A stretch of DNA of 8,654 nucleotides from a virus (Duplodnaviria > Heunggongvirae > Uroviricota > Caudoviricetes): the IMG/VR virus record IMGVR_UViG_2563366830_000015; one strand, 5' to 3'. Below, piece by piece: positions 1-7,953 of the stretch (its first letter is position 1; each line of letters starts with the position of its first letter). The translations under genes were made by a program, and so were the position numbers. Below the pieces are notes generated by a model. That model made no database searches and was not told the origin of the DNA. It saw nothing but the letters and a program-made list of their open reading frames with translations.

Positions 1-291
1 GCCGGTGGTTTTTCTGCCACCACGATGCTGTTTTCACTGGGGGCCAGCATGATACTGGGCGGTGTGGCCCAGATGCTGGCCCCGAAGGCAAAAACACCGG
101 ATTACCGCGCAACGGATAACGGCAGACAGAACACGTACTTTTCCTCGCTGGATAACATGATTGCCCAGGGGAACCCGATGCCGGTGCCTTACGGGGAAAT
201 GCTGGTTGGCTCCCGCCGTATATCCCAGGACATCAGCACCCGTGATGAAGGCGGGGGCGGAAAGGTCGTGGTTATCGGGCGGCAGGGGTAA
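1..291 (+). CDS. I: Tail assembly protein I (lambda gpI-like), C-terminal part; 5' end lies upstream of the window
   Basis: Frame 1 is open from base 1 to TAA at 289-291. The translation (...MLFSLGASMILGGVAQMLAPKAKTP...TDNGRQNTYFSSLDNMIAQGN...VVVIGRQG) matches the C-terminus of lambda gpI as I recall it. It sits directly upstream of J, as in lambda. Confidence 0.85.
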   Translation, partial: AGGFSATTMLFSLGASMILGGVAQMLAPKAKTPDYRATDNGRQNTYFSSLDNMIAQGNPMPVPYGEMLVGSRRISQDISTRDEGGGGKVVVIGRQG

Positions 292-298
292 AAAGAAT

Positions 299-337
299 AA
301 AAAAATCCCGCAGTGATCGCGGACAGGAACTGCGGGA
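299..337 (-). terminator. Candidate intrinsic terminator on the minus strand (8-bp GC-rich stem plus U-tract)
   Basis: Plus-strand TCCCGCAG (306-313) and CTGCGGGA (330-337) form an inverted repeat around a 16-nt loop. On the minus strand the stem is followed by TTTTTTTATTCTTTTT (complement of 305-291). There is no T-tract on the plus-strand side, so it is oriented for leftward transcription. Confidence 0.4.
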
Positions 338-395
338 GAGTTACGAAGATTAAGTGTAAGGAATTATTCTTATATCACGACAAAAAAATTAACGC
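299..395 (-). ncRNA. Candidate ~95-nt antisense small RNA (hypothetical; defined only by promoter and terminator)
   Basis: The region between the predicted minus-strand start (~395) and the minus-strand terminator (337-299) contains no ATG on the minus strand, so no protein can be encoded. It sits in an AT-rich spacer absent from the compact lambda I-J junction as I recall it. No family assignment is possible by eye. Confidence 0.25.
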
Positions 396-401
396 AGAGA
401 A

Positions 402-430
402 ATTATACGCGCCACAGTCAGTTTGTGAAA
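402..430 (-). promoter_or_regulatory. Candidate sigma70 promoter on the minus strand (TTCACA - 16 bp - TATAAT)
   Basis: Reverse complement of 391-430 reads TTTCACAAACTGACTGTGGCGCGTATAATTTCTCTGCGTT. The -10 is a perfect TATAAT (plus 407-402); the -35 TTCACA (plus 429-424) is 5/6 to consensus with a 16-bp spacer. An AT-rich tract lies upstream on the minus strand (plus 431-460). Confidence 0.35.
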
Positions 431-504
431 ATGTGAAGATATTCAGAATTTTTATGCCATTACCGGTTTTAACCAACAGGATTATCGGTGGGCATGAAAG
501 AAAA

Positions 505-537
505 CCCCGGTATCTGCTGATACCGGGGTTTCTCTTT
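505..537. terminator. Bidirectional intrinsic terminator-like hairpin (10-bp stem, 4-nt loop) between I and J
   Basis: CCCCGGTATC (505-514), loop TGCT, GATACCGGGG (519-528) is a perfect 10-bp stem. It is flanked by AAAGAAAA (497-504) upstream and TTTCTCTTT (529-537) downstream, so a U-rich tract follows the stem on either strand. Confidence 0.5.
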
Positions 538-634
538 AGCATGGCAGAAATGTGTTTCATGCTTTTCGGGCGAAGGATATCCGACTTCTGTACGGAATGG
601 CAAGTGGCGGTTAATTTATTCAGGGGAAGGCTGT

Positions 635-3600
635 ATGGGAAAAGGTGGCGGTAAGGCACACACGCCTCGTGAGGCGAAGGATAATCTCAAATCCACGCAG
701 ATGATGAGTGTGATTGATGCGATTGGTGAGGGACCGATAGAAGGTCCGGTGAAGGGACTGCAGAGTATTCTGGTGAACAAAACCCCGCTGACGGACACGG
801 ACGGTAATCCCGTGATACACGGTGTGACTGCGGTCTGGCGTGCCGGGGAGCAGGAGCAGACACCACCGGAAGGCTTTGAGTCCTCCGGTGCTGAAACCGG
901 ACTGGGCGTGGAAGTGACGAAGGCAAAACCGGTGACGCGCACCATTACGTCCGCGAACATTGACCGCCTGCGGGTTACCTTCGGAGTGCAGTCACTGGTG
1001 CAGACCACGTCAAAGGGCGACCGTAATCCTTCCTCTGTCCGGATTCTGATTCAGTTACAGCGTAATGGCCGCTGGGTGACGGAAAAGGACGTCACCATTA
1101 ACGGCAAGACCACCTCACAGTTCCTGGCCTCGGTGATTCTGGATAATCTGCCTCCCCGGCCCTTTAACATCCGGATGGTCAGGGAGACGGCGGACAGCAC
1201 CACGGACCAGCTGCAGAATAAGACGCTGTGGTCGTCATACACTGAAATCATCGATGTGAAACAGTGCTACCCGAACACGGCCATTGTGGGGCTGCAGGTG
1301 GATGCGGAGCAGTTCGGCGGCCAGCAGATGACGGTGAACTACCATATCCGCGGTCGCATCATCCAGGTGCCGTCAAACTATGACCCGGTAAAACGCACGT
1401 ACAGTGGTATCTGGGACGGCAGTCTGAAACCGGCATACAGCAACAACCCGGCCTGGTGCCTGTGGGACATGCTGACTCACCCGCGCTACGGCATGGGAAA
1501 ACGTCTGGGGGCGGCGGATGTGGACAAGTGGGCGCTGTATGCCATCGGGCAGTACTGCGACCAGACGGTCCCGGATGGTTTCGGGGGGACCGAGCCGCGG
1601 ATGACCTTTAATGCGTACCTGGCACAACAGCGTAAGGCGTGGGACGTTCTCAGTGATTTCTGCTCTGCGATGCGCTGTATGCCGGTATGGAACGGCCAGA
1701 CGCTGACGTTCGTTCAGGACCGCCCGTCGGATGTGGTGTGGCCGTACACCAACAGCGATGTGGTGGTGGATGATAACGGCGTGGGATTCCGCTACAGCTT
1801 CAGTGCCCTGAAGGACCGGCACACGGCGGTGGAGGTGAATTACACCGACCCGCAGAACGGCTGGCAGACCTCCACGGAACTGGTGGAAGACCCGGAAGCC
1901 ATACTGCGCTACGGACGCAACCTGCTGAAGATGGACGCGTTCGGCTGTACCAGCCGCGGTCAGGCCCACCGTGCCGGACTGTGGGTGATAAAGACCGAAC
2001 TGCTGGAAACGCAGACGGTGGATTTCACGCTCGGGTCTCAGGGGCTGCGGCACACACCCGGTGACATCATTGAAATCTGTGATAACGACTATGCCGGGAC
2101 CCTGACCGGCGGACGTGTCCTGTCCATTGATGCTGCCACCCGCACCCTGACGCTGGACCGTGAAGTGACACTTCCGGAGACCGGTGCCGCCACGGTGAAC
2201 CTGATTAACGGCAGCGGTAAGCCGGTGAGTGTGGACATCACCGCACACCCCGCGCCGGACCGGATACAGGTCAGTACCCTGCCTGATGGTGTGGAGACAT
2301 ACGGGGTGTGGGGACTCTCCCTGCCGTCACTGCGCCGTCGCCTGTTCCGCTGTGTCTCCGTCCGGGAAAACACGGACGGCACCTTTGCCATCACGGCGGT
2401 GCAGCACGTACCGGAAAAAGAAGCCATCGTGGATAACGGTGCCCGCTTTGAGCCGCAGTCAGGTTCCCTGAACAGCGTCATCCCACCGGCAGTGCAGCAC
2501 CTGACGGTGGAGGTGAGCGCAGCTGACGGACAGTATCTGGCGCAGGCGAAATGGGACACGCCGCGGGTGGTGAAGGGTGTGCGCTTCAGTCTGCGCCTGA
2601 CCAGTGGTAAGGGAACGGATGCCAGACTGGTGACCACCGCCATCACCGCAGACACGGAGCACCGTTTCAGCGGCCTGCCGCTCGGGGAATACACCCTGAC
2701 GGTGCGGGCGATAAACAGCTATGGCCAGCAGGGTGAACCTGCCACCACCACATTCCGGATTGCCGCACCGGCAGCACCGTCGCGGATTGAGCTGACGCCG
2801 GGCTATTTTCAGATAACGGCGGTCCCGCGTCTTGCGGTGTATGACCCGACGGTACAGTTTGAGTTCTGGTTCTCGGAAAAGCGGATTGCGGATATCAGGC
2901 AGGTTGAAACCGCAGCCCGCTATCTTGGCTCGGCGCTGTACTGGATAGCTGCCAGTATCAATATCAAACCGGGCCATGATTATTATTTTTACATCCGCAG
3001 TGTGAACACCGTTGGCAAATCGGCATTTGTGGAGGCTGTTGGCCAGCCGAGTGATGATGCATCCGGCTATCTGAATTTTTTCAAAGGAGAGATAGGGAAA
3101 ACCCATCTGGCTCAGGAGTTGTGGACGCAGATTGATAACGGTCAGCTTGCGCCTGACCTGGCTGAAATCAGGACGTCCATTACGGATGTCAGCAATGAAA
3201 TCACGCAGACCGTCAATAAAAAACTGGAAAATCAGAGTGCGGCAATCCAGCAGATACAGAAGGTTCAGGTTGATACAAATAATAATCTGAACAGCATGTG
3301 GGCTGTGAAGCTGCAGCAGATGCAGGACGGACGCCTTTATATTGCGGGTATCGGTGCCGGTATTGAGAATACGCCAGCAGGAATGCAGAGTCAGGTGCTG
3401 CTGGCGGCAGACAGGATTGCGATGATTAATCCTGCGAATGGCAACACAAAGCCGATGTTTGTTGGTCAGGGCGATCAGATATTCATGAACGACGTGTTCC
3501 TGAAACGCCTGACGGCTCCCACCATTACCAGCGGCGGTAATCCTCCGGCATTTTCCCTGACACCGGACGGAAAACTGACCGCTAAAAATGCAGATATCAG

Positions 3601-4108
3601 TGGCAGTGTGAATGCGAACGCCGGGACGCTCAACAATGTCACAATTAATGAGAACTGTCAGATTAAGGGGAAACTGTCAGCCAACCAGATTGAAGGCGAT
3701 ATAGTCAAAACAGTGGGTAAGGCTTTTCCGCGGGACTCCCGGGCACCGGAGCGGTGGCCATCAGGGACCATTACCGTCAGGATTTATGACGATCAGCCTT
3801 TTGACAGGCAAATTGTTATTCCGGCGGTGGCATTCAGCGGCGCTAAACATGAGCGGGAGAATAACGATATTTATTCGTCATGCCGCCTGATAGTACGGAA
3901 AAACGGTGCTGAAATTTATAACCGTACCGCGCTGGATAATACGCTGATTTACAGTGGTGTTATTGATATGCCTGCTGGTCGCGGCCACATGACGCTGGAG
4001 TTTTCTGTATCAGCATGGTGGGTAAATGGCTGGTATCCCACAGCAAGTATCAGCGATTTGCTGGTTGTTGTGATGAAGAAAGCCACTGCAGGCATCACGA
4101 TTAGCTGA
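635..4108 (+). CDS. J: Tail tip / host specificity protein J (lambda gpJ family), 1157 aa
   Basis: Single long ORF with ATG at 635 preceded by GGGGAAGG (624-631) as a ribosome-binding site. An in-frame TGA at 518-520 and no alternative start in between fix the start. The N-terminus ([22 protein letters not shown]...) and long conserved blocks (e.g. [108 protein letters not shown]) match lambda J as recalled. Confidence 0.95.
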
Positions 4109-4127
4109 ATTTTATAACCCCAATACG

Positions 4128-4154
4128 GGCGCCAGAAATGGCGCCTTTTTTATT
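4128..4154 (+). terminator. Intrinsic terminator downstream of J
   Basis: GGCGCC (4128-4133), loop AGAAAT, GGCGCC (4140-4145), followed by TTTTTTATT (4146-4154). Classic GC stem plus T-run, 20 nt after the J stop codon. Confidence 0.7.
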
Positions 4155-4175: not shown

Positions 4176-4775
4176 ATGCGTAAAGTTTGTGCAGCCATTT
4201 TGTCCGCAGCAATCTGTCTGTCTGCCTCCGGTACGCCAGCGTGCGCGGCAGAACATCAGTCCACACTGAGCGCGGGGTATCTTCATGCCCGCACGGATAC
4301 TCCCGGCAGCGATAATCTGAACGGGATTAACGTGAAATACCGTTATGAGTTTACGGACGCGCTGGGGCTGATTACGTCCTTCAGTTATGCCAATGCTGAG
4401 GATGAGCAAAAAACGCACTACAGCGATACCCGCTGGCATGAAGATTCCGTGCGTAACCGCTGGTTCAGCGTGATGGCGGGGCCGTCTGTACGCGTGAATG
4501 AATGGTTCAGCGCGTATGCGATGGTGGGTGTGGCTTACAGCCGTGTGTCGACTTTCTCCGGGGATTATCTCCGCGTAACTGACAACAAGGGGAAAACGCA
4601 CGATGTGCTGACCGGAAGTGATGACGGTCGCCACAGCAACACGTCTCTGGCGTGGGGGGCTGGCGTGCAGTTTAACCCGACCGAATCCGTAACCATTGAC
4701 CTTGCTTATGAAGGTTCCGGTAGTGGCGACTGGCGAACGGATGCATTTATTGTTGGTATCGGATACCGTTTCTGA
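4176..4775 (+). CDS. lom: Lom outer membrane protein (Ail/Lom/PagC family beta-barrel), 199 aa
   Basis: ATG at 4176 is preceded by GAGAGG as a ribosome-binding site. The N-terminus MRKVCAAILSAAICLSASGTPACA looks like a signal peptide. Blocks such as STLSAGYLHA, NLNGINVKYRYEFTD, RWFSVMAGPSVRVNEWFSAYAM, SLAWGAGVQFNPTESV and a terminal aromatic residue (...GYRF) match lambda Lom and Ail-family proteins as recalled. Confidence 0.95.
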   Translation: MRKVCAAILSAAICLSASGTPACAAEHQSTLSAGYLHARTDTPGSDNLNGINVKYRYEFTDALGLITSFSYANAEDEQKTHYSDTRWHEDSVRNRWFSVMAGPSVRVNEWFSAYAMVGVAYSRVSTFSGDYLRVTDNKGKTHDVLTGSDDGRHSNTSLAWGAGVQFNPTESVTIDLAYEGSGSGDWRTDAFIVGIGYRF

Positions 4776-4879
4776 CAACAGACGCCGATTTATCTTCTGT
4801 AAATATTGTTATGATACGCAGGTTCATCCGCCTTATGGGGTGAACTGCGTTTGAGGAAACGTAAAGTTACACTGTCCTG

Positions 4880-4916
4880 AAGCCCGTGGCGTCACTGCTG
4901 CGGGCTTTTTTTATTG
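4880..4916 (+). terminator. Intrinsic terminator-like hairpin 105 bp downstream of lom, immediately upstream of stf
   Basis: AAGCCCG (4880-4886) pairs with CGGGCTT (4901-4907) across a 14-nt loop, followed by a T-run (TTTTTTTATT, to 4916). The stf ribosome-binding site GGTGGA (4916-4921) and ATG 4927 follow. Confidence 0.6.
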
Positions 4917-4926
4917 GTGGAAAAGT

Positions 4927-7900
4927 ATGACAGTAAAAATTTCTGGCGTGCTTAAAGATGGCACAGGAAAACCAGTACAGAACTGCACCATTGTGCTGAA
5001 GGCCAGACGAACCAGCAGCACGGTGGTGGTGAACACGGTGGCCTCTGAAAATCCGGATGAAGCCGGACGTTACAGCATGGATGTTGAGCATGGCCAGTAC
5101 AGCGTCACCCTGCTGGTTGAAGGTTTTCCGCCTTCACATGCCGGGACCATTACCGTCTATGAAGGTTCCAGACCAGGTACGCTGAATGATTTTCTCGGTG
5201 CCATGACGGAGGATGATGTCCGACCGGAGGCACTGCGCCGCTTTGAGCAGATGGTGGAAGAGGTGTCACGTAACGCCTCCGCGGTTGCACAGAATACGGC
5301 AGCCGCGAAAAAATCAGCCAGCGATGCCAGTGCATCAGCCAGCGAGGCGGCAACTCATGCAACCGATGCTGCAGCCTCAGCACGTGCCGCCAGCACGTCA
5401 GCCGGACAGGCCGCGTCGTCGGCTCAGTCAGCGTCTTCCAGCGCAGGAACGGCATCGACAAAGGCCCGTGAAGCAGCAAAAAGTGCTGCTGCTGCAGAGT
5501 CATCAAAAAGCGCGGCAGCTACCAGCGCCAGTGCCGCGAAAACGTCAGAAACGAATGCCGCAGCATCACAAAAATCGGCAGCCACTTCTGCATCCACAGC
5601 GACCACGAAGGCGTCAGAAGCTGCCACCTCGGCACGGGGTGCGGCGGCCTCAAAAGAGGCAGCGAAATCTTCAGAAACGAATGCATCATCAAGTGCCAGT
5701 AGTGCAGCTTCCTCGGCAACGGCGGCAGGAAATTCCGCGAAGGCGGCAAAAACGTCCGAGACGAACGCTAAGTCTTCTGAAACAGCAGCGGGACAGAGCG
5801 CCTCAGCTGCGGCAGGTTCAAAAACAGCGGCTGCATTATCTGCCAGTGCCGCGTCAACAAGTGCCGGGCAGGCCTCAGCCAGTGCCACCGCCGCCGGAAA
5901 ATCGGCAGAAAGCGCCGCATCATCCGCTTCAACAGCCACAACGAAGGCTGGCAAAGCCACTGAGCAAGCCACTGCAGCAGCGAGGTCTGCTTCTGCAGCA
6001 AAAACCTCTGAAACAAATGCAAAGACTTCAGCAGACAATGCTGCTTCCTCTAAGGCGGCAGCCGCATCGTCAGCCAGTTCAGCGGCGTCATCGGCATCAT
6101 CTGCGTCTGCTTCAAAGGATGAGGCGACCAGACAAGCGTCAGCAGCGAAAGGTAGTGCCACGACAGCAACAACGAAAGCATCAGAGGCGGCAGGCAGTGC
6201 GACGGCTGCATCTCAGAGCAAAGTTGCTGCTGAATCCGCGGCAACGCGCGCCGAGACAGCAGCAAAACGGGCAGAGGATATTGCATCCGCCGTGGCGCTG
6301 GAGGATGCGAGCACGACGAAAAAGGGGATAGTACAGCTCAGCAGTGCAACAAACAGCACCAGTGAAAAGCTGGCGGCAACGCCAAAGGCAGTTAAAACTG
6401 TTAAAGATAGTTCAGTTCAAAAAACTGGCGACACAATGGGAGGGCAGTTAAAAATCAGCACGATAAATGCTCTTCGAATATTCAACCAAGCCTTTGGCCT
6501 TATTTTTAGGCGTTCCGAAGATCATCTTCATCTTATTCCGACTAATGAAGGGGAGGGGGAAAATGGAGACATCGGTTCATTAAGACCATTCTCTATAAAC
6601 TTAAGATCAGGGTTGGTGTCCATCGGTAATGGACTAAAAGTTGGTGGTAGTGTTACTGGTAATTTGACCGGAAACGCAGATACTGCGACCAAGATCAAGA
6701 CAGCACGTAAGATTGGGGGCGTGGCATTTGATGGATCGGCAGATATCAACTTGCCTGGAGTCAACGCTACCGGTAATCAAAACACTACAGGTAATGCTGC
6801 GACCGCCACGAAACTTCAGGCAGCCAGAACGATTAACGGTGTGTCATTTGATGGTAGTGCAAATATCACATTGACCCCTTCAAATATTGGGGCATTGGCA
6901 TTAACTGGAGGGACTCTTTCAGGTGGTTTAACTGCTGCTGGTGAGGTTATTTCAAGGTCAGCAAATGGTCTGCGTATTGCCTATGGCAACTATGGATTCT
7001 TTATCCGAAATGATGGATCAAACACATATTTTATGTTGACAGATTCGGGTAACAGTCTTGGTACGCACAATAGCTTAAGGCCGTTTATAATTAGTAACCA
7101 TACTGGCAATGTTACAATTGCAACTAAATTAAACGCGAGTGGTGGTATCACTGGATCTTTATCGGGTAATGCAAGCACAGCAACCAAATTGCAAACTGCA
7201 AGGACAATTAACGGCGTAAAATTTGACGGCTCGGCAAATATTGAAGCGTTTCCGCCAGGTGTTCCGCTGCCGTGGCCATCAGATACACCACCTGCAGGTT
7301 ATGCGATCATGCAGGGGCAGACGTTTGATAAGGCAGCATATCCGAAACTGGCTATTGCCTATCCTTCAGGTGTTATTCCAGATATGCGCGGCTGGACAAT
7401 CAAGGGCAAACCCGCCAGTGGCCGGGCCGTATTGTCTCAGGAACAGGACGGCATAAAATCGCACACCCACAGCGCCAGCGCATCCAGTACGGATTTGGGG
7501 ACGAAAACCACATCGTCGTTTGATTACGGCACTAAATCCACGAATAACACCGGGGCGCATACGCACAGTCTGAGTGGCTCTACGGGGTCTGCCGGTGTTC
7601 ATACTCATGGTAATGGTATTCGTTGGCCAGGAGGCGGCGGTTCTGCGTTAGCATTTTATGATGGCGGTGGGTTCACTTATGTCCAGAATTCACAGTATCA
7701 AGTAAGCCCGGAGACTTCTTCCTATAGATCGTATTATCAACGTATTCAGACACAGTCAGCAGGTGCTCATACCCACTCGCTGTCTGGTACTGCAGCAAGT
7801 TCTGGCGCACATGCACATACTGTAGGTATTGGTGCGCATACGCACTCCGTTGCGATTGGTTCACATGGACACACCATCACCGTTAACGCTGCGGGTAACG

Positions 7901-7953
7901 CGGAAAACACCGTCAAAAACATCGCATTTAACTATATTGTGAGGCTTGCATAA
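4927..7953 (+). CDS. stf: Side tail fibre protein Stf (lambda Stf / orf-401 family), 1008 aa, with expanded Ala/Ser/Thr-rich repeat region and fibre-repeat modules
   Basis: The N-terminus ([22 protein letters not shown]...[14 protein letters not shown]...[13 protein letters not shown]) and C-terminus (...[50 protein letters not shown]...[31 protein letters not shown]) match lambda Stf as recalled. The stop TAA 7951-7953 overlaps the ATG of tfa (TAATG). Confidence 0.9.
5270..6295 (+). repeat. Coding low-complexity region of imperfect tandem repeats (Ala/Ser/Thr-rich, recurring AAKTSETNA-like units) within stf
   Basis: Recurrent nucleotide units (e.g. aaaacgtcagaaacgaatgc, aaatcttcagaaacgaatgc, aaaacgtccgagacgaacgc, aaaacctctgaaacaaatgc) encode K(T/S)SETNA repeatedly. 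Both alternate-frame ORFs across this segment are long and low-complexity, as expected for repetitive GC-rich coding DNA. Confidence 0.7.
6670..7245 (+). repeat. Three copies of a ~23-aa phage tail-fibre repeat (TATK[LI]xxAR[TK]I[NG]GVxFDGSA[ND]I) within stf
   Basis: The copies are [23 protein letters not shown] (~6678-6746), [23 protein letters not shown] (~6797-6868) and [23 protein letters not shown] (~7173-7241). The motif resembles the short phage tail-fibre repeat family known from fibre proteins (family name from memory). Confidence 0.6.

Follow-up and report, generated by a model that had tools for sequence, protein, structure and literature searches.

The spacer between tail genes I and J in this prophage carries, on the minus strand at 299-455, what is very probably (probability roughly 0.85) a self-contained small RNA (sRNA) gene of the PasB/EcOnc22-24 family, inserted like a moron between two late genes. 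Coordinates refer to the window, the whole 8,654-nt stretch of DNA that was analyzed. Small RNAs of prophage origin reshape host regulation in pathogenic E. coli. Genes of the PasB/EcOnc22-24 kind are already known, with no Rfam model describing them. The advance made here is incremental and consists of the identification of the window cassette as a divergent PasB-family allele, a signature formed by an ARN tract and a conserved core, and evidence that the distribution of the family has been undercounted. Its open reading frames (ORFs), RefSeq match and Pfam domains identify the window as the tail end of a lambdoid prophage, in which the following features are referred to below.

25-291, plus strand: 3′ end of tail assembly gene I, flanking the cassette (ORF list), with its stop codon at 289-291
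299-305, minus strand: U7 tail, the termination site and a candidate Hfq proximal-face site
306-337, minus strand: intrinsic terminator hairpin with a 9-bp stem, core CCCGCAGU/ACUGCGGG (scan and RNAfold)
299-395, minus strand: predicted primary transcript of 97 nt, with G395 as the 7th nucleotide after the -10 element and the start site inferred from promoter geometry
345-362, minus strand: conserved single-stranded core UCCUUACACUUAAUCUUC (UCCWU ... AAUC invariant), a candidate seed (allele alignment A2; no consensus pairing predicted)
363-371, minus strand: AAGAAUAAU, three A-R-N triplets, a candidate Hfq distal-face site by conservation
402-407, minus strand: -10 hexamer TATAAT, after a 16-nt spacer (consensus scan)
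424-429, minus strand: -35 hexamer TTCACA (consensus scan)
436-455, minus strand: A/T-rich block ATAAAAATTCTGAATATC, UP-element-like, upstream of the -35 element and forming the upstream edge of the conserved module
505-535, no strand assigned: GC-rich hairpin outside the sRNA module, located between its promoter and J and resembling a terminator on either strand
635-4108, plus strand: tail tip/host specificity gene J, flanking the cassette (Pfam Ig_J, FNIII-A_GpJ, Phage-tail_3 and Ig_GpJ_C)
4176-4775: lom homologue (Pfam Ail_Lom, E = 7.5e-126)
4927-7953: tail fiber gene, 1008 aa
8112-8537: IS3-type transposase ORF of the orfA type (Pfam HTH_Tnp_1 domain)

DNA identical to the gene I part is labeled "tail assembly protein" in RefSeq. 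The I-J spacer of the window measures 343 nt (292-634), against 60 nt in lambda (I ends at 15444 and J starts at 15505) and 240 nt at the PasB locus of E2348/69, which agrees with the original prediction that the lambda junction is compact and that the window spacer contains acquired material. The spacer ORFs at 313-654 (plus), 375-659 (minus) and 469-603 (minus) have no Pfam match, the DNA beneath them is not conserved between spacer versions, and the minus-strand ORF at 375-659 lies mostly in DNA that is missing from short-spacer versions of the locus. Farther downstream, the transposase ORF lies directly 3′ of the tail fiber gene, and because no tail fiber assembly gene is seen ahead of the insertion sequence, the tail module of this prophage may be interrupted.

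The promoter is the best promoter-like site in the 8,654-nt window: TTCACA, a 16-nt spacer and TATAAT, read on the minus strand from 429 to 402, match the consensus at 11 of 12 positions, as expected from the near-consensus sigma70 promoter originally proposed there. Of 500 shuffles of the whole window that preserved dinucleotides, 24 (~5%) also contained a site with at least 11 of 12 matches, so the promoter by itself is mildly unusual and suggestive, and the strongest case against chance is the comparative one set out below. The A/T block upstream is retained in three unrelated upstream contexts and may act as an UP element. At the other end, where a GC-rich hairpin and U-tract had been proposed at 337-291, a scan found a minus-strand stem at 323-307 followed by ATTTTTTT, and RNAfold widens this stem to 9 bp (U337-A306 to U329-A314, spanning 337-306) with two further pairs predicted inside the loop, leaving U7 at 305-299 and bearing out the proposed extent. 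Read on the plus strand, the hairpin leads into AGAGTTACG, indicating that it is a one-way terminator for leftward RNA and not the terminator of I. The fold of the 99-nt transcript has a free energy of -19.4 kcal/mol (z = -2.15), with 6 of 200 shuffles as stable, a weak score that is expected for an RNA whose structure is confined to its terminator. Reading the minus strand from 430 to 299 for starts confirmed the claimed lack of an ATG; GTG and TTG codons open 2-codon frames only.

The identity of the gene follows from comparison with PasB (pathogenicity-associated sRNA B; Pearl Mizrahi et al. 2021, PMC8550237), an 83-nt RNA encoded by prophage PP6 of EPEC E2348/69 on the minus strand at NC_011601.1 1466343..1466261 (PMC8550237 Table S6) and placed between E2348C_1436 and E2348C_1437 (PMC8550237). 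These two genes are today annotated as a tail assembly protein (ending at 1466255) and gpJ (starting at 1466496), and PasB lies in this I-J spacer, directed against the operon, six bases past the I stop codon, a layout that is the same as in the window. The two loci also share the TTCACA-16-TATAAT promoter with its upstream A/T block; an identical terminator, TCCGCGATCACTGCGGGAUUUUUUU, in which CCCGCAG...CTGCGGG is followed by U7 within a 25-nt exact match; and a body that can be aligned from end to end, including an invariant ARN tract and UCCUU/AAUC core. The 3′ end of PasB maps to the last U of the U-run shared with the window, and the published PasB Northern probe, AATCCCGCAGTGATCGCGGAGCT (PMC8550237), matches window positions 304-323 at 20 of the probe's 23 positions. 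The window differs in its promoter-to-J DNA, which is unrelated to that of the PasB locus, in a 5-nt insertion in its terminator loop, and in a body that is only about 60% identical. In a MAFFT alignment (A2) taken from the predicted transcription start site, the window allele and PasB are 69% identical overall, with 60% identity across the body and 84% across the terminator segment. Pairwise alignment of the window with E2348/69 shows near-identity from the A/T block to the first transcript bases (~60 nt) and again from the terminator into I, with a divergent middle; homology of the bodies is credible because the flanks on both sides are near-identical.

The same cassette also corresponds to EcOnc22, EcOnc23 and EcOnc24, reported as homologous Hfq-CRAC peaks in prophages Sp15, Sp14 and Sp11 of EHEC O157:H7 Sakai (Tree et al. 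2014, PMC4104026 Table S2). All three peaks fall in I-J spacers on the strand opposite the tail genes, and the cassette is identical in Sp15, Sp14 and Sp11. The published EcOnc22 probe, GGGAGAGAACGATGAAGATTAACTGATGAGTTA (PMC4104026), has a 23-nt exact match, GTTAATCTTCATCGTTCTCTCCC, to the cassette body on the anti-tail strand of Sp15, Sp14 and Sp11, while its other 10 nt, as stored, mismatch. The published EcOnc22 coordinates refer to NC_002695.1, and an AgvB1 anchor places them at a shift of ~+139 relative to the current record, a calibration that the probe match made unneeded. The Sakai allele resembles the window in position, orientation, terminator stem, conserved core and ARN tract, and it differs in its -35 element, which is degenerate (TCCGGC), its -10 element (AATAAT), its 5′ part and its terminator loop, being 67% identical overall. 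Its RNA is still seen by Northern blot and Hfq-CRAC (promoter region at 1290-1330 of locus L123, from Sp15, and identical in L124 and L125). Promoter strength or regulation therefore probably differs between the Sakai and window alleles, and because an allele without a recognizable -35 element is nevertheless expressed, promoter details may matter less than assumed.

PasB and EcOnc22-24 thus belong to one family, a link between two separately named RNAs that is new here: it is stated in neither PMC8550237 nor PMC4104026, a table in the former lists EHEC homologues for PasA and PasD and none for PasB, and the main text of Zhu et al. 2026 (bioRxiv 10.64898/2026.05.13.724894) does not contain "EcOnc." The function of EcOnc22-24 was listed as unknown in a 2021 review (PMC7873438). 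The proposal of a stand-alone sRNA gene transcribed opposite the tail operon is borne out by these two precedents in the same I-J position, and the RNA, which had not been matched by eye to a named family, does belong to one. Rfam is silent on the point: the whole window contains no family at gathering score, and a search of 250-680 with E values up to 10 returned just sub-threshold terminator look-alikes (SSRC34_2, STnc310, CopA and others) far below gathering score, a blank explained by the lack of an Rfam model for the PasB/EcOnc22-24 family. Two other identities were considered and rejected. AgvB/AsxR (RF02702, RF02703) are sited downstream of PR′ and gave no Rfam match, even at E up to 10 in 250-680; PasA, PasC and PasD occur in a different context, beside Q, lysis and esterase genes.

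Experimental support for the window sRNA comes, by analogy, through homologous alleles with bodies about 60% identical to its own. The predicted sizes of the Pas RNAs were backed by Northern blot, and pasB RNA fell in delta-hfq cells under two conditions, by log2 fold changes of -6.8 (a 110-fold drop) and -2.4 (a 5-fold drop) (PMC8550237). PasB ranked 15th by interaction number among RNAs of the EPEC Hfq network defined by RIL-seq (PMC8550237), with 37 interactions, 30 of them in the CDS/5′UTR class, and a U-tract of 7 (PMC8550237 Table S5). EcOnc22 gave a Northern band of ~85 nt and was destabilized in delta-hfq cells (PMC4104026).

These data bear on the length of the transcript, for which ~95 nt had been proposed. 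The promoter supports this value, predicting 97 nt from a 5′ end at 395, whereas the homologues have been sized at ~83-85 nt and the 5′ end may lie at ~382: window 299-382 is the equivalent of annotated PasB (83 nt; ends mapped by alignment from PMC8550237 Table S6), the annotated start of which is 15 nt downstream of that predicted by the promoter. Likewise, EcOnc22 ran at ~85 nt on a Northern blot versus 91 nt predicted. The sequence offers no obvious second promoter from which a start near 382 could arise. The PasB 5′ end was set from read coverage and an approximate Northern size (PMC8550237), and either the reported PasB and EcOnc22 ends are approximate or a 5′ U-rich leader is trimmed. 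In the predicted fold of type B alleles, to which PasB belongs, the A-rich ARN tract is base-paired to the 5′ U-run (PasB RNA nt 8-33, in the fold of L002:1260-1359, minus strand); the regions to compare in the window are 382-388 and 363-371, and the reported PasB 5′ end falls just past the U-run. We speculate that leader trimming would free the ARN tract.

The comparative case rests on an IMG/VR scan by exact terminator match, which returned at least 120 stretches. Together with the window, E2348/69, Sakai and an Stx2c phage, the IMG/VR matches listed gave 125 cassettes (32 unique), 119 of which were fetched by terminator match only, so that the promoter was not selected for. Among the matches listed, TTCACA-16-TATAAT is kept in 116 of the 125 loci and TTCACA in 121, and the -10 elements other than TATAAT are AATAAT, GATAAT and GATAAA. 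The promoter is therefore kept while the body diverges to ~60% identity. Co-conservation of promoter and terminator had been put forward as a check, and the result favors the prediction over the contrary outcome, in which the hairpins are kept and the -10 and -35 elements are lost. At least five body types were seen among the cassettes listed.

Type A: the window, and with few changes Stx2c and Stx1a phages
Type B: PasB, together with PasB-2, a variant at position 27 described by Zhu et al. (bioRxiv 10.64898/2026.05.13.724894)
Types C and D: further body types
Type E: Sakai

Published work has named two of these alleles, separately, as PasB (EPEC) and EcOnc22-24 (EHEC). Conservation also speaks to the view that type A is a silent relic, or a set of chance signals, whose promoter and terminator were inherited without current function. 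The evidence for type A comes from its sequence, and an 11/12 promoter arises by chance in ~5% of shuffled windows. Its promoter, however, is intact and consensus-like, 613 E. coli genome records have the allele at an identity of at least 99%, and conservation of promoter and terminator around a diverging body is the pattern of a maintained gene; we find a relic hardly credible.

The limits of the conserved unit coincide with those of the gene. Homology of the window to Stx1a- and Stx2c-converting phages is limited to 300-455, and the conserved unit of ~299-455 comprises exactly the A/T block, promoter, transcript and terminator. The filler between promoter and J exists in at least two unrelated versions, of 196 nt (window) and 93-94 nt, each with sub-variants. 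The body types are reassorted with the fillers and with the I 3′ end, of which two versions occur, across three upstream contexts, indicating that the cassette is a recombining unit. With its own promoter and terminator between late genes, and its absence from the lambda site, the cassette would by its sequence fit the definition of a moron. It resembles lambdoid morons (for example lom and bor; Juhala et al. 2000, as cited in PMC4104026) in being an autonomous promoter-gene-terminator unit inside the late operon, and it appears to differ from the morons described there in that its cargo is a non-coding RNA oriented against the operon. In the window itself, lom follows the textbook moron layout, with a strong plus-strand terminator-like hairpin on either side, at 4127-4146 (after J) and at 4879-4908 (after lom). 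A bolder proposal, which we put forward tentatively and at less than even odds, is that the I-J spacer is an allelic sRNA slot in which a fixed promoter and terminator serve as recombination handles for a swappable body, that the PasB census misses more than half of the family, and that type A has its own regulon. Under this proposal, type A would be the allele common in extraintestinal isolates and in Stx1a and Stx2c phages.

The remainder of the spacer contains a second hairpin that lies outside the sRNA module. A GC-rich hairpin is present between the sRNA promoter and J in every spacer version (the window, with equivalents in L002, L123 and L001) and has, on the tail-operon strand, the look of an intrinsic terminator just 5′ of the ribosome-binding site (RBS) of J. 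The window version at 505-535 pairs CCCCGGTATC with GATACCGGGG and is followed by TTTCTCTTT. The hairpins of short spacers differ, being CAGGCACC..GGTGCCTG or CAGGCATCC..GGATGCCTG followed by TTGTTTTTGTG, with one compensatory change of C-G to T-A. Hairpins of this type might insulate J from leaky rightward transcription, in the sense direction of the tail operon, in the lysogen. One IMG/VR locus (L051) lacks 47 nt corresponding to window ~504-550, which include the hairpin and one copy of an imperfect 12-nt direct repeat found in the window as GCATGAAAGAAA at 492-503 and GCATGGCAGAAA at 539-550. The hairpin could thus have arrived as a small insertion, or the repeats could make it liable to deletion.

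Within the transcript, the A positions of the ARN tract are invariant across alleles and its N positions vary (alignment A2), as in AAG AAU AAU in the window, AAA AAC AAC in PasB and AAA AAU AAC in Sakai, and at least three consecutive ARN triplets occur at the aligned place in 13 of 14 allele representatives. The tract appears among the invariant columns of the alignment as A.AA.AA, and the others are the first bases (GC-TTA), UCC-U, AAUC and the terminator. RNAalifold on this alignment predicts the 7-bp terminator stem alone, invariant in 14 of 14 alleles with a covariation term of 0, although this invariance is partly an artifact of having fetched the IMG/VR loci by exact terminator match. 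The core agrees in position with the seed that Zhu et al. (bioRxiv 10.64898/2026.05.13.724894) proposed for PasB, in a single-stranded stretch just upstream of the terminator. No common target motif has been reported for PasB, as "pasB" is not in Table S7 of PMC8550237. The window RNA contains a 3′ U7 and the AAGAAUAAU ARN repeats, and it may be an Hfq class II-like sRNA.

An ARN tract of this kind is what Tree et al. (PMC4104026) describe for AgvB and AsxR of EHEC prophages, and it raises the question of whether the window RNA is likewise an anti-sRNA sponge, binding the Hfq distal face through the ARN tract and having core-genome sRNAs as its main partners. AgvB and AsxR are prophage-encoded, Hfq-binding short RNAs with their own terminator, in families that mix conserved and variable parts; the window RNA is also prophage-encoded and has a body that varies between conserved ends. 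AgvB and AsxR, in contrast, are 51-60 nt long, lie downstream of PR′ next to moron coding sequences rather than between I and J, and have no similarity in sequence or structure to the window sRNA, including at the level of the Rfam models. Moreover, since 30 of the 37 PasB interactions in RIL-seq were with the CDS/5′UTR class (PMC8550237), we consider a sponge very unlikely.

We favor instead a trans-acting, Hfq-dependent sRNA of the PasB type. The sigma70 promoter, with its UP-like A/T block, TTCACA, 16-nt spacer and TATAAT, would drive a non-coding RNA of ~84-97 nt, and this leftward RNA would end at the 9-bp GC-rich hairpin and U7, directly past the I stop codon. With its own promoter the sRNA would be produced while the prophage is repressed, without need of the late operon. 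Hfq would hold it at two sites, the 3′ U-tail and the conserved (ARN)3 tract, and the unstructured core (UCCUU...UAAUCUUC, nt ~34-51) would pair in trans with mRNAs of the host and the accessory genome, as shown for PasB by RIL-seq in EPEC; the pyrimidine-rich UCCUU would suit purine-rich ribosome-binding regions. Positions flanking the invariant core differ between alleles and ~40% of the body is different, and for this reason the target set predicted for type A may differ from that of PasB. A crude RNAduplex test of the sRNA body against the translation start regions of J, lom, the tail fiber gene and the transposase ORF found complementarity no better than with shuffles.

The gene occupies one fixed position and runs against the tail operon in all alleles and contexts seen, and this constancy leaves a cis-acting antisense role to be weighed. 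Either the leftward transcript or its transcription could act on the late tail-operon mRNA and tune J relative to I in lytic growth, whether through interference from convergent transcription or through base pairing at the I-J junction of the polycistronic RNA, leading to RNase III processing. By construction, the sRNA is an exact complement of the late transcript in its I-J part. This complementarity is nevertheless limited to intercistronic late mRNA: the transcript at 299-395 is clear of I (which ends at 291), of J (which starts at 635) and of the RBS of J, from which it is separated by more than 200 nt. The term antisense in the original prediction thus holds for orientation and fails for overlap. 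Homologues, furthermore, build up in lysogens, with the late operon silent, depend on Hfq and form chimeras with many unlinked mRNAs. Together with the lack of overlap with a coding sequence or RBS, the abundance of homologues in lysogens and their unlinked partners make a purely cis-antisense role improbable. Trans and cis roles are compatible, and the fixed position and orientation leave room for an added effect on the late transcript beside the trans activity that we favor.

The cassette is widespread in E. coli. Megablast searches of 5,426 complete E. coli genomes gave the following counts.

Type A body (window 324-400): 800 genomes, 985 places
PasB, 83-nt query: 956 genomes, 999 places
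Sakai allele: 542 genomes, 1,246 places (median 2 per genome)
Whole window-type spacer: 1,662 genomes, 2,510 places

No annotated feature lies under the type A, PasB, Sakai or whole-spacer matches in these genomes. In the phage collection, all 65 matching records are Escherichia or Stx phages. A GTDB scan with the pattern CCCGCAGN{9,18}CTGCGGGATTTTTTT was discarded as generic, having recovered, among the matches listed, unrelated terminators from Firmicutes, Bacteroidota and other phyla. Zhu et al. (bioRxiv 10.64898/2026.05.13.724894) counted 1,158 PasB hits by blastn with a word size of 28 and query coverage >75%, an operational rather than biological criterion. With the 83-nt PasB query, the window gives no hit at word size 28 and, at word size 11, the 25-nt terminator alone at 30% query coverage. 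Because the query misses the window at the census settings, the published census very probably excludes type A.

The practical gains from this analysis are the link between PasB and EcOnc22-24 and a corrected distribution of the family; these are modest and introduce no new principle. The family definition, consisting of promoter, ARN tract, core and terminator, could seed an Rfam model. Carriers of type A include many human clinical isolates and Stx1a- and Stx2c-converting phages, and the seed region of this allele differs from that of the allele that has been studied. Expression of type A, if it occurs, would mean that ~15% of complete E. coli genomes carry an unannotated Hfq sRNA.
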